A DNA stretch of 64,000 nt, taken from Candidatus Marinacidobacterales bacterium (GTDB taxonomy: Bacteria; Acidobacteriota; Vicinamibacteria; Marinacidobacterales; SMYC01). The stretch is from positions 1,120,001 to 1,184,000 of the forward strand of contig OZ250169.1 in NCBI GenBank assembly GCA_965237955.1, given 5' to 3'. Under the pieces are notes generated by a model. That model was not told the DNA's origin. It worked only from the letters and a program-made list of their open reading frames with translations, and searched no databases. Every line of letters begins with the position of its first letter. Positions within the stretch are counted from its first letter, which is position 1. The translations under genes were made by a program, and so were the position numbers. This document shows, in pieces, positions 13,470 to 25,562 of the stretch.

Positions 13470-13670
13470 GGTGCTTCCGCCATTAAGTGTTGGTAGCTGC
13501 CGCTTAACCCGCTCACGTGCTAGAGTTTGAGCCTGACTTCGAGAGACGCAGTCCTTTCGGCGATGCCGGCTGGGCTGACCACGCGGTGCCTGATGTTCAG
13601 GGACATCGTTTATGGCGTTCGCCGGCAAAGGCAGGCCAACTGACACTAGCATTCAACCGCGGCGTAGCAA

Positions 13671-14348
13671 CATATCTGGACTCCTCTAGTCAAGCCCCTT
13701 TCTTAATAAATCTTCCATCGAAGCTGCGCATCCATCGCGTCGTGACGAGTGGGTCAGACTGCAAACGTATCTTCGGCCTCAGTGAGGAGCGTCTTGGGTG
13801 CTCCGGGCCATGATGGAAAATCCGCGCGCGAGGAGCCAATCACTTTGAACGACCTCTTAGGGCCAGTGTTGCTATCGGCTTGACCCCGCGCCGGTCCGAC
13901 CGGTACGCCATCAGTTGGATGGGTATCGTCGCAGCCTCTTTTGGAAGGGAAAAAGGAAAACACGAAAGTGGAGCCTCTAAGTCTAAGCGGCCATCGGCGA
14001 CTGGAATTCATATCTGGACTCCTCTAGTCAAGCCCCTTTCTTAATAAATCTTCCATCGAAGCTGCGCATCCATCGCGTCGTGACGAGTGGGTCAGACTGC
14101 AAACGTATCTTCGGCCTCAGTGAGGAGCGTCTTGGGTGCTCCGGGCCATGATGGAAAATCCGCGCGCGAGGAGCCAATCACTTTGAACGACCTCTTAGGG
14201 CCAGTGTTGCTATCGGCTTGACCCCGCGCCGGTCCGACCGGTACGCCATCAGTTGGATGGGTATCGTCGCAGCCTCTTTTGGAAGGGAAAAAGGAAAACA
14301 CGAAAGTGGAGCCTCTAAGTCTAAGCGGCCATCGGCGACTGGAATTCA
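13671..14348. repeat. Tandem direct duplication, 338-bp period, of the IS1111 right end
   Basis: CATATCTGGACTCC... begins at 13671 and 14009. The copies appear identical. Confidence 0.95.
14095..14265 (-). ncRNA. Predicted bridge RNA / seekRNA (second copy at ~13757-13927), boundaries approximate
   Basis: Minus-strand GCCGA-TAGCAACA...AAGTGAT-TGGC target loop and TTCCA...AGATACG donor loop match the element's flanks and ends. Confidence 0.75.
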
Positions 14349-15352
14349 CTCTCGCGGGTGGAGACGGCCCAGACGATCCGGGCGAGTTTGTTGGCGACAG
14401 CAATCACGGCCTTGTTGTGTCCCCGCGAGCGGTGGACCTTCCGAGCCCAGGCGCGGAGCTTGTCGGGCGGGCTCTTACTGACGTTCGCCGCGCGGAGCAC
14501 GGCGCGCCCGCCCTGGGTGAGGAGCATACGGAGGTAGGAGTCGCCACGCTTGGTGATGCGTCCGAGGCGGCGAATGTCGCCACTGGAGTTTTCCTTGGGA
14601 ACTAGGCCGAGGTAGCTCGAGAAGCGGCGCCCCGATGGGAAGCGGCGAAGATCGCCGACGAAGCCCACGATGGCGGTCGCGGTCAGAAGTCCGATGCCGG
14701 GAATGGCGAGAAGTCGTTGGACTTCAGGAAGCTGCTTGGTGAGCGCCTTGAGCTCGTGCTCGATGCCAGCGCACTTGTCCTTGAGTTCTCGAATCTCGGA
14801 GCAGGCATCACGGAGATGCGAACGGAGCACGTCGGGCAAATCAGAATCAGCGTCTTCGACGAGTTCGAAGAGGGCGGGCACGACGAAGTGAGCGCCCTTT
14901 GGGATGATGAATCCGAGTTCGCGCAGGATCCCGCGTACGGCATTGATGCGTGCGGTCCGTGTGGAGAGCCATCCTGAGCGCAGGCGATGGAGCGCGGCGA
15001 GGCTGTGCTGGTGCACGGACTTAATGGGCACGGGAAGAATCTCCTCGTTCCTGTAGGCCTCGAGCAACGCTTTGGCGTCGGCGCGGTCGTTCTTGCTCCC
15101 GCGTCGATAGGGCCTCACGAGGTGAGGTGGGAGCAGGACGACGTCGTGTCCCAACCTTCGGAACGTCCTTGCCCAGAAGTGAGCAGAGCCGCAGGCTTCG
15201 AGAAGCACGGTGGCAGCGCTCTGTTTGGCAAAAAACGACACCAACTTGGGTCGACTCACACGGAGTTGCTTGGACACCTTCCCCGCTTCTCCCGAGATGG
15301 CAATCTCGAAGACGTTCTTTGCAAGATCCACAGCGATCGTCGTATCTTTCAT
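14321..15352 (-). CDS. IS110/IS1111 DEDD recombinase (transposase)
   Basis: IAVDLAKNVF, LLEACG, SKNDRADA, GLVPKENSSG, VIAVANKLAR. GGAGGAG RBS. Confidence 0.95.
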   Translation of the reverse strand: MKDTTIAVDLAKNVFEIAISGEAGKVSKQLRVSRPKLVSFFAKQSAATVLLEACGSAHFWARTFRRLGHDVVLLPPHLVRPYRRGSKNDRADAKALLEAYRNEEILPVPIKSVHQHSLAALHRLRSGWLSTRTARINAVRGILRELGFIIPKGAHFVVPALFELVEDADSDLPDVLRSHLRDACSEIRELKDKCAGIEHELKALTKQLPEVQRLLAIPGIGLLTATAIVGFVGDLRRFPSGRRFSSYLGLVPKENSSGDIRRLGRITKRGDSYLRMLLTQGGRAVLRAANVSKSPPDKLRAWARKVHRSRGHNKAVIAVANKLARIVWAVSTRESEFQSPMAA

Positions 15353-15530
15353 TCGGACTCCTCCTTTTCGATGCGTATTCGACTGACTTTGGCACATCGA
15401 TGCCGTCTATGTCAGCGGAGGAGTCCATTCCATCACTTGATTGTGAAAGCACCCGTTCTCGCATATGCTGGTACTTCCCTGCAATTCCGTAGAGTCGGTG
15501 AGAATGCAGGGACACGCTCCCGACACGGAG

Positions 15531-16478
15531 ATGACCACTGTGTGCACCATGAGATCGCTTCTCGGAGCTTCCGCGCTGGCTGTGGTCGGCACCGGACTGA
15601 TCGCCGGCAAGGCCTCGGCGCAGTCGGCGTCCGGCTTCTATCTGAACCAGGAGGTCGGGCTCAACGTCGCGTCGGCGGTTGAGTTGCTCGGCAACAGCAA
15701 CGACCGGGCCAGCCGCTGCGACGAGTTCATCAACCCCCGCTTCGCGGAGGTCCCCGGTTGTACCGACCCGAACCGCGGGTCGGGCGCGGGTTGGAAGACC
15801 ACGTACGACCGCGCCGCCGGGATGCTAGCTGGGCTGTCGGGCGGCTACCGGTTCGGCGGGCGGCTGCGAGTCGAGGTGGAGTGGTTCCATCGGGAGTCGG
15901 AGTACGACCAGACCTCGTCGGTGACGAGCGCGACCGGCGACACCTTCGCGAAGCTGGGCGGCGAGATCCAGCGGGCCGAGGACCGGATCGGCAGCATCTC
16001 GTCGCAGAACATCTTCGCCAACGTGTACGTCGACTTCCCCGGCCGGACTCGTCTGATGCCGTACGTCGGGGTGGGGGTTGGCATCGGCCTGACCGAGCTG
16101 GACTACGGCGACTTATGGGCGCGGAACCCCAACCCTGCCGCGATCGCCACGGCCGCGGGCCTCCCGAACGAGACGGAGATACGCCGGAACCTCGCGGCGA
16201 CCACGACGAGCAAGCAGGCAGAGTTGCACGACCGACTGACCGGGTACCAGGTGCTGGGCGGCGCAGACTATAGGATGTCGGAGATGTTATCGCTCGGCGT
16301 CAAGGTCCGCTGGGTGCGCTTCGGCCGCTTCACCGCCGAAGACATCGAATGGGAGCGCCTCCGGAGCCACGCGTCGCAACTGCGTCTTGACGGCAGCGAA
16401 CCGGTGACATTCCGCATCCGGACTGACGGCGCCCTCTCGTTCGTGGGCGTCACCTTGGCCATGCGGTACACGTTCTAA
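15531..16478 (+). CDS. Outer-membrane beta-barrel protein (OMP_b-brl / P44-Msp2-like)
   Basis: Signal peptide ...ASA|QSASGFYL, GYRFGGRLRVEVE, PYVGVGVG, terminal RYTF. Start could be 15531 or 15549. Confidence 0.8.
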   Translation: MTTVCTMRSLLGASALAVVGTGLIAGKASAQSASGFYLNQEVGLNVASAVELLGNSNDRASRCDEFINPRFAEVPGCTDPNRGSGAGWKTTYDRAAGMLAGLSGGYRFGGRLRVEVEWFHRESEYDQTSSVTSATGDTFAKLGGEIQRAEDRIGSISSQNIFANVYVDFPGRTRLMPYVGVGVGIGLTELDYGDLWARNPNPAAIATAAGLPNETEIRRNLAATTTSKQAELHDRLTGYQVLGGADYRMSEMLSLGVKVRWVRFGRFTAEDIEWERLRSHASQLRLDGSEPVTFRIRTDGALSFVGVTLAMRYTF

Positions 16479-24966: not shown

Positions 24967-25093
24967 CCATGCTGCTCGCACAGACCTCATGGACAATTGC
25001 GAGCAGGTTTTCGACGAGCCCGTGGTGTGGCGACCGCGCGTGAAGATTCGCAGCGATGGCAACTCGCTGCTCGATTCGCAGCGCTCCTGACCC

Positions 25094-25228
25094 CGTCCTG
25101 TGCCAAAACTCGGACAGCCACGACATCCCCAAGCGCCGGCCTACGGCCCTTGGCCCGGTCGCAAACACAGACACTTAAGTTGCTGATTTATGGCCTATTT
25201 CAAAAGAGCCTAGTTTTGGCACAGGACG
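25094..25228 (-). mobile_element. 135-bp MITE of the CGTCCTGTGCC family
   Basis: Inverted near-copy of 8613-8746. Confidence 0.85.
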
Positions 25229-25401
25229 CGGTCGGCGGAATGTGATGCTGGCGGATGAAGTTCGTTGGCTTCTGCCATCAAGTGATCCATCCCGCCTGCC
25301 ACGAGTGATTTGACCTCACGGTTAATACCACGTTGTATCTTAGTAATTCGGTGCTGACAAGGGCTGGTTGAAGCCGGCGGGGTGCTTCCGCCATCAAGTG
25401 A

Positions 25402-25562
25402 TGGGATGGACTCCTCCGCTGACATAGACGGCATCGATGTGCCAAAGTCAGTCGAAAGAACGCATCGAAAAAGGAGGAGTCCGAATGAAAGATACGATGA
25501 TCGCTGTGGGTCTTGCAAAGAACGTCTTCGAGATTGCCATCTCGCGCGAAGCGGGGAAGGCC
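25402..25562 (+). pseudogene. Left-end remnant of the same IS1111 element
   Basis: TGGGATGGACTCCTCCGCTGAC...[20 protein letters not shown], near-identical to 15432-15280. Confidence 0.85.

Follow-up and report, generated by a model that had tools for sequence, protein, structure and literature searches.

Target site and anatomy of the insertion sequence

In a 64,000-nucleotide stretch of a Candidatus Marinacidobacterales genome (the window), two copies of one insertion sequence (IS) begin inside a short motif that recurs nearby. We asked what this motif is and what places the IS within it. A preliminary description of the window had stated that both IS left ends lie at the same position of the motif, and both are indeed in the same register. 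The motif pattern proposed there matched five places in the window at three or fewer mismatches (13470, 15434-15453 on the minus strand, 16525, 25381 and 61250); shuffled controls averaged 0.09 matches and never gave more than 1. Empty, diverged motifs had been listed at 13470, 16525, 25267 and 61250; three of them were recovered at this threshold, and 25267 appeared only at four mismatches (as 25265). The description was staked on most IS copies lying inside the motif, and genome-wide 25 of the 26 left ends follow it, while all 18 outer right ends run on into TTGCTA.

The empty site reads AAG-TG-TTGCTA, with TG as the core, because the A that follows AAGTG belongs to the IS. For this reason AAGTGATG was rejected as the empty site, and the target word first proposed, AAGTGATGTTGCTA, which contains that one IS base, was corrected to AAGTGTTGCTA. 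Contigs from two of four sequencing runs contain the joined empty form AAG-TG-TTGCTA, with 1763 bases skipped and 2 letters shared. At the first occupied site, the left target half is formed by the 18 outermost bp of a MITE's right terminal repeat (15436..15453, minus strand), and the MITE resumes with the TG core and right target half, TTGCTAC (13664..13672, minus strand). The second occupied host end (25381-25398, plus strand) is followed by a truncated IS stub (25399-25560).

The unit copy of the IS lies at 14011..15435 on the minus strand (1425 bp counting the left TG). Its transposase gene (14321..15352, minus strand) encodes a 343-aa DEDD protein with PF01548 and PF02371 domains, which scored 308.9 bits against NF033542 (cut-off 140). 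The protein has residues D9, E52, D89 and D92, SG at 257-258 and a C-terminal GLVP----SG; IS1111-group transposases of the DEDD type are likewise about 330-350 aa long with a C-terminal G-P-SG motif. According to PMC11187229, ends of this group carry a 7-bp left and a 3-bp right extension. The present element has 7- and 3-bp extensions (the left one at 15435-15429, minus strand) outside 11-bp sub-terminal inverted repeats that match at 10 of 11 positions (15428-15418 on the left, minus strand, and 13686-13676), within the 11-13 bp typical of the group. The non-coding region 3' of the transposase is 312 bases, a long downstream non-coding part being typical of the group. Once the ends are set, the copies lie in a single orientation at a fixed position without target duplication, as for IS1111 elements. 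The element is thus an IS1111-group insertion sequence of the IS110 family.

The right part of the IS is present twice. A 338-bp tandem duplicate (13673..14010, minus strand) carries the whole RNA region described below, the right sub-terminal repeat at 13686-13676 and the 3-bp extension. The same duplication was found again in another host end, at C1:7863055; this 338-bp form thus occurs both in the end of a MITE and in that of a full-length host. The IS right end also contains a TTGACT -35 box, which with a weak -10 box may form a junction promoter. No circle joint was listed from the contigs of the four runs.

The host is an IS1-like element

The motif has 224 matches genome-wide and is a recurrent terminus: it forms the terminal repeats of an IS1-like element of 1.2 kb and of the MITEs related to it. 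Paired motif ends, 23-bp repeats starting with GG, enclose elements of 1197-1200 bp that contain an IS1-like ORF, both in this genome and in relatives, where 12 copies are intact. IS1-family elements have terminal inverted repeats starting with GG and make an 8-9-bp target duplication. The host resembles this family in its GG-ended repeats and in its protein, which combines a zinc ribbon, an HTH and a DDE triad (D122/D183/E248); it differs in having a single 355-aa ORF, in scoring below the curated cut-offs (78.6 vs 100 bits, and 21 vs 24.1; its best model is NF033558, IS1), and in showing no flanking direct repeats. Many homologues of the protein pass PF03400 and carry IS1 names. In the search for a host target duplication, the longest flanking repeat among 49 end pairs was 3 bp, a swapped-partner test gave no excess, and inspection of the 12 intact copies from relatives revealed none. 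When flanks were joined in search of a clean empty host allele, none emerged: each of the six candidate links ran via the repeat of a third element or via nested ends. Because no target duplication was found, we name the host only IS1-like; sequence comparison establishes its identity as far as an IS1-like transposase. The repeats of a Deinococcus IS1 homologue differ and have only the GG ends in common. Left-type ends that were also drawn into the host-body alignment were left out of its reading.

Removal of the IS restores the host MITE at 13470..15453 (minus strand; right end 15453, left end 13470), as had been proposed, with a length of 221 bp instead of about 224 bp; genome-wide, nine complete occupied MITEs measure 221-251 bp. 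The left terminal repeat of this MITE (13470..13492, plus strand, 23 bp) continues into TG-TTGG and represents an end type that is never occupied in this genome. Three other copies of the motif in the window, all on the plus strand, are a 96-bp piece from the right end of the IS1-like element, empty and diverged, whose target word is broken and which abuts an rve fragment (16525..16620), a lone diverged tip with four mismatches and nothing host-like after the core (25265..25284), and a lone tip that adjoins an rve remnant (61250..61269). The last had been read as the head of that remnant, but it is not part of it: the best-matching relatives of the remnant (21 listed, 20 of which are about 85% alike) have different upstream sequence.

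The host had first been taken for an rve-type transposon or MITE family, and although rve fragments adjoin the motif at 16618 and 61284 and ten motif ends directly follow the repeat tip of an rve element, we regard this as hardly credible, given that paired motif ends bound the element encoding the zinc-ribbon/HTH/DDE protein here and in the relatives, that rve elements have their own ends or different upstream sequence, and that the motif does not bound an rve (IS3/IS481-like) transposase at both ends.

Occupancy follows the match to the target word

The preliminary description had called for occupancy to be compared with target match. In this genome, 14 of 15 right ends with a perfect word were occupied, compared with 0 of 19 with one mismatch and 0 of 153 mismatched ends. 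Only the right end type of the host is used; left ends, which share the same outer 23 bases, are occupied 0 times. Three perfect words are empty here: one repeat end, one tip-less end and one outside any repeat. The right end was either occupied or altered in all of the full-length host copies that were examined in this genome.

In three genomes without an IS left end, 46 of 59 empty right ends had the word intact, compared with 0 of 20 in the two genomes that carry full IS copies, a contrast whose statistics are overstated since the genomes are related. The other 13 of the 59 right ends in the IS-free genomes were mismatched. Genome G008 carries four IS left ends, yet 11 perfect ends are empty; no complete copy was seen there. 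Other genomes carry near-identical elements, and 53 of their 59 left ends lie in the motif. The remaining six, all from one genome, are not in a host end; each of these sites ends in AGTG, and in most of them the sequence continues with a word resembling TTGCT. One relative copy (L007) occupies a left-type end. A right end with a 3-bp deletion was found in two copies, only in this genome among 21 searched; it may be the scar of a faulty excision, and could also reflect one event or slippage.

The insertions are independent

Eleven of 17 full IS copies are identical over 1423 bp, an identity that polishing could inflate. The nine complete host MITEs, on the other hand, differ by 4-31 substitutions in 220 bp, or 2-14%. 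Because the IS copies are identical while their hosts are this far apart, the insertions are independent. We considered whether one old insertion in a MITE end could have been multiplied as a passenger of the host IS1-like transposase, with no repeated targeting. An occupied end retains 22 of the 23 bases of the repeat, the IS left end restoring a near-perfect repeat, and four copies with a common outer flank were clearly duplicated within a larger block. Nevertheless, we judge such passenger amplification very improbable: identical IS copies occupy diverged hosts and also different host types, another genome has six copies placed away from any host end, and joined empty forms are present in the reads. 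It is largely refuted as a general cause and could still hold for single copies.

A predicted guide RNA matches both halves of the target

The 3' non-coding part of the IS contains a predicted seek/bridge RNA region at about 14095..14255 (minus strand), with a conserved scaffold and a consensus fold in which 9 of 36 pairs show two-sided changes; a search of the region against Rfam gave no match. Three putative slots were recognized, all on the minus strand. Slot 1 (14204..14213) is complementary to the top strand of the core and right target half. Slot 2 (14179..14188) matches the left target half and core (AAGTG), with only 5 bases matching without a bulge. A predicted donor-matching slot (14149..14157) is complementary to the IS left end at 8 of 9 positions. 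The top-strand match (14213-14204) thus lies 5' of the bottom-strand match (14188-14179), as in the IS1111 group.

Guides and flanks co-vary in distant relatives: true pairs gave 4.35 vs 2.20 and 4.29 vs 3.15 matches of 6 (n = 17 each), values reached in 0 of 5000 shuffles, although the rows are related and the statistics therefore overstate the effect. The core register shifts by 1-2 bases among relatives, and the guide is identical across elements 93-98% alike in several genomes. The placement of the IS at the host end is likely RNA-guided, as judged from these matches.

Alternatively, the site could be set by a feature of the host end, such as a hairpin of the paired repeats or bound host transposase, instead of a short word recognized through RNA-DNA pairing. 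Relatives of the attC type insert into folded sites, as PMC11187229 also describes; 53 of 59 relative copies sit in full motifs, and the single perfect word outside a repeat stays empty here. However, the outer 23 bases do not differ in left ends, none of which is occupied here, single mismatches in the word go with empty ends (0 of 19), six copies stand at unrelated sites with only the word in common, and guides co-vary with flanks. We therefore give this alternative only a slim chance.

A sibling element points to a probable origin in attC

A sibling that is 91% identical to the main element lies in the same genome inside a 114-bp attC-like hairpin, an attC assignment made by motif and fold. 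In slot 1 it agrees with ISPa25 at 8 of 10 bases. By contrast, GTT is absent near the core of the main element, which is not of the attC type; its slot 1 reads GCT where attC-type guides, including those of the IS1111-attC group, read GTT. The closest named protein match of the main element is to the ISPa25 family (46.3% over 343 aa), one of the IS1111-attC elements with ISKpn4 and ISPst6, and ISPa25 shares with it the 19-base left end, the RNA scaffold and the guide slots. The IS1111-attC group, however, targets attC, whereas the present element targets an IS terminal repeat. In the tree, the IS1-end group has support of 98/77, a node that is not starred (SH-aLRT 77), and the sibling is its sister at 100/95, with outgroup L138 typed by guide only. 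Because a sibling 91% alike sits in an attC-like site with an ISPa25-like guide, the lineage likely switched from attC to the IS1-like end, re-aimed recently by few guide changes. The preliminary description had offered IS1111-attC as an analogy; the tree, the sibling guide and the hairpin indicate that the link is likely one of descent too.

Discussion

Taken together, these data very probably mean that an IS1111-group IS is placed one-way by a guide RNA reading AAG-TG-TTGCTA, its landing point being a TG core located 18 bases into the right terminal repeat that an IS1-like element shares with its MITEs, and that its lineage was re-aimed from attC. A guide RNA from the 3' non-coding region would read this 11-base word; by analogy with the family, the RNA would be made and bound by the transposase, and movement would proceed via a circle or direct strand transfer. 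Tree and guides suggest that the lineage was once aimed at integron attC and that few guide changes re-aimed it. Spread would have continued, because the host end is abundant, until nearly all perfect sites were filled, the remaining empty right ends carrying target mismatches. The idea of an RNA-guided parasite of terminal repeats thus stands as to the fixed position in a mobile family's repeat and MITEs and, probably, the guidance by RNA, but not as to an rve host; the harm to the host element that the word parasite implies is suggested by the occupancy pattern.

As to why the host end is used, two readings are compatible with this mechanism. A bolder one is that through the guide switch an element specialized on integron sites came to suppress, under RNA guidance, a rival IS1-like family, with right ends saturated and disabled and only escape variants left, an arms race between two IS families; the junctions would also record one-ended strand transfers, as tandem duplications ending exactly at the core on both donor and target side, the candidates being at 13673-14010 and C1:2861941-2862344. 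This proposal is tentative and, as a whole, rather unlikely. The apparent escape variants may be survivors and not selected mutants, because mismatched ends also occur in IS-free genomes (13 of 59). The other reading, to which we assign a little under an even chance, is that guide drift away from the attC word, which is similar, produced the match, and that this spread owing to the abundance and harmlessness of the end as a landing place, the host being neither needed nor meaningfully suppressed. The attC and IS-end words are a few bases apart, unrelated look-alike sites are used when present, and the mismatched ends of IS-free genomes fit as well; on the other side, the guide is constant across elements 93-98% alike in several genomes, and all full-length host copies examined here have an occupied or altered right end.

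IS4321 and IS5075, both IS1111 members, are said to be fixed on the terminal inverted repeats found in transposons of the Tn21 family. The present element likewise sits on the terminal inverted repeat of another mobile element, but its host is an IS1-like DDE element with MITEs, used at one end type only, and not a Tn3-family transposon. IS1383 reportedly inserts specifically in the inverted repeats of IS1384, a member of the IS5 family; this is again one IS using another's inverted repeat, in a host family different from the IS1-like one. The strategy of an IS1111 element on another element's repeats is therefore already in print. According to PMC11187229, ISEc21 of the IS110 group also shows RNA-guided targeting of another IS family, its relatives being naturally re-aimed; its target is a coding motif in the transposase of IS3 members and its non-coding region lies upstream, whereas the present element uses a terminal repeat and a downstream region.

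What our analysis adds to the IS1111 targets is a new host class, an IS1-like end, the mechanism itself being known. It also provides a rare natural before/after pair, attC-guided and IS-end-guided elements 91% alike on the same chromosome, and about 200 near-cognate ends for which occupancy is known, a specificity data set for work on bridge and seek RNAs. Safe landing and suppression of a competing element thereby become directly testable against each other.

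Site-specific insertion into the ends of an IS1-like element

The flanking pattern picked out in the preliminary description was recurrent, with 5 matches in the window against 0.09 expected. The genome was scanned as a single contig of 8.13 Mb, in which the window is C1:1120001-1184000, and the 20-base terminal-repeat motif gave 224 matches at four or fewer mismatches, compared with 2-15 for five shuffled motifs. A 32-base probe found 25 left ends of the IS1111-group element (IS), 24 of them directly 3' of the motif, and a 33-bp IS stub brought this to 25 of 26. At the 25 right ends, TTGCTA came next in 18; six were internal duplication joints, and one was the end of the sibling, a 91%-identical IS copy in the same genome. 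Because TG is the only sequence that the left and right junctions have in common, we read the empty site as AAG-TG-TTGCTA with TG as the core, and this joined form was present in contigs from two of the four sequencing runs compared. The site-specific insertion pattern is real, well supported and unusually clean.

The preliminary description assigned the targeted ends to an rve transposon/MITE family, but the association of the motif with rve proved coincidental. Pairing of motif ends across the genome gave 49 inverted pairs, one of which bounds an element of 1197 bp. The protein encoded by its ORF combines a zinc ribbon with an HTH and D122/D183/E248. IS1 was the best model for this ORF, with a score below the cut-off, and homologues bear PF03400 and IS1 names. 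The upstream end of the host element continues as TG-TTGG (left-type) and its downstream end as TG-TTGC (right-type, the target); 12 intact copies with both ends were found among 18 regions from relatives. Target duplication is among the IS1 hallmarks used for comparison. None was found in three tests, which included paired ends here and intact copies in relatives, and we therefore call the host IS1-like rather than IS1.

The source genome, G000, has 118 left-type ends and several MITE families of 105-250 bp with a common 23-bp repeat, most with an interior unrelated to that of the targeted MITE. Two host right ends (G000:C1:3086457-3087653 and 7995414) lack 3 bp at the core, which destroys the target, and this form was seen only in G000 among 21 genomes searched. 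Ten of the 224 motif ends lie immediately after base nine of another terminal repeat, that of a third IS, of rve type, which has 507 such ends in G000 and one element in the window at about 11598-13023. IS1-like ends abut this ninth base far above chance frequency, possibly as a second end-targeting layer or as an adjacent-deletion hot spot.

Occupied and empty ends

In this genome, 14 of 15 perfect target ends were occupied, against 0/19 one-mismatch ends and 0/153 ends with any mismatch. These counts are for a filtered set, which omits eight occupied ends with a truncated IS (right half unreadable), ends whose flanks are repeated and three copies from a single duplicated block. Only three perfect words are still empty genome-wide. 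By hand count, empty right-type ends kept the word intact in 0/16 cases in this genome and 0/4 in G012, and in 24/31, 18/22 and 4/6 in three genomes with no IS left end (G015, G017 and G019). G008 was an exception, with 11 perfect empty ends alongside four IS left ends and no complete IS copy seen.

The insertions were independent: eleven of the 17 full IS copies had zero differences across 1423 bp, while the nine complete host MITEs differed by 4-31 substitutions in 220 bp. The IS was also present in full-length host ends. The 338-bp duplicated form occurred both in a MITE and in a full-length host, which speaks for a genuine duplication and for an IS that moved on its own.

Near-identical IS elements were present in genomes titled Candidatus Marinacidobacterales, at 70 loci; the G-numbered genomes are mutually related and possibly overlap these records, so that the two sets were not summed. 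Of the 59 readable left ends, 53 lay in the motif and six, all from one genome, at unrelated sites having only the short target word in common. A single copy (L007) lay in a left-type end. Among elements at greater distance, 51 had a left flank that could be read and none of these carried the motif; this target therefore belongs to one young lineage. Two 62%-identical relatives, L060 and L061, have different guides, which match their own flanks, and are inserted in a short palindromic repeat.

Predicted guide RNA and core-anchored duplications

The transposase (343 aa) contains the two Pfam domains of IS110 and reached 308.9 bits against NF033542; its best named match was the ISPa25 family, at 46.3%, and the ORF was intact in 15/17 full copies. 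The IS has 11-bp sub-terminal repeats, extensions of 7 and 3 bp and a 312-base 3' non-coding region, features that fit the IS1111 definition in PMC11187229. The element belongs to an already known class of system.

Slot 1 of the guide RNA predicted from the sequence is complementary to the core and right flank, and slot 2 matches the left flank and core, in the order that PMC11187229 gives for IS1111 seekRNAs. Both predicted slots fell in unpaired loops of a consensus fold of six sequences, and an additional slot matches the IS left end. Matches between guides and their own flanks exceeded all 5000 shuffles for each slot (17 distinct guides per slot), a co-variation statistic that is inflated by kinship of the rows and uncorrected for one register choice.

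At 17 joints the right part of the IS was duplicated in tandem, its right end being joined at the exact core boundary to internal sites: six in G000, including window 14010-13673, and 11 in L022, L033, L034, L036 and L037, some of these relative loci appearing error-rich. The second core base was G at all 17 (TG 12, CG 2, AG 2, GG 1). Mirror-image duplications of the left flank stop exactly at the core on the left side of the target at three independent loci (G000:C1:2861941-2862344, 2974176, 3011962, 7874127 and 7862976), as an array of seven units of 48-62 bp, as a single 16-bp duplication event present in three copies, and as a duplication of 79 bp. They were found at 5/25 occupied sites, two more matches being excluded as nested or unlike, and at 0/156 empty ends and 0/59 relative sites. 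One-ended top-strand transfer, reported for another IS110 element in bioRxiv 2025.10.25.684509, could by analogy cause both kinds of duplication.

The window is dense in mobile DNA (16660-18245, 19373-21681, 26182-27171 and 22411-24966): an rve remnant encloses an IS3-type element, and there are also an IS21-type pair, an IS5-type gene and a restriction-modification gene of a fused BsuBI/PstI type.

Relation to attC targeting

The sibling (G000:C1:5245811-5247243) lies at a 114-bp attC-like site with paired R''/R' boxes and a bottom-strand hairpin; two similar empty sites are at 7297174 and 5400428. An integron integrase match was seen in two pieces, one above the cut-off, at G000:C1:3346207-3347146. 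Among 22 hand-picked elements, six had a clear closed hairpin, five carried the two boxes but folded weakly or differently, and three had the R' box alone in reach; three were unparsed, and GTT near the core was absent in five, the main element among them. The plasmid element ISPa25 has the same 19-base left end, lies six bases before GTTAGCC and agrees with the sibling at 8/10 slot 1 bases.

In a tree of 39 transposases, built without outgroup rooting or a formal clade test and with one candidate excluded for a short alignment, the IS1-end group (98/77) was sister to the sibling (100/95), and L138, a relative with an attC-like guide, branched outside (100/100). No published IS1111 element targeting an IS1-like end was found in the literature covered, which included PMC11208160 and PMC12288879; ISfinder, supplements and most subscription literature lay outside this scope and may list one. 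It is likely that attC targeting came first and IS-end targeting later. The main interest lies in the set of occupied and empty ends, along with this likely switch from attC to IS ends.
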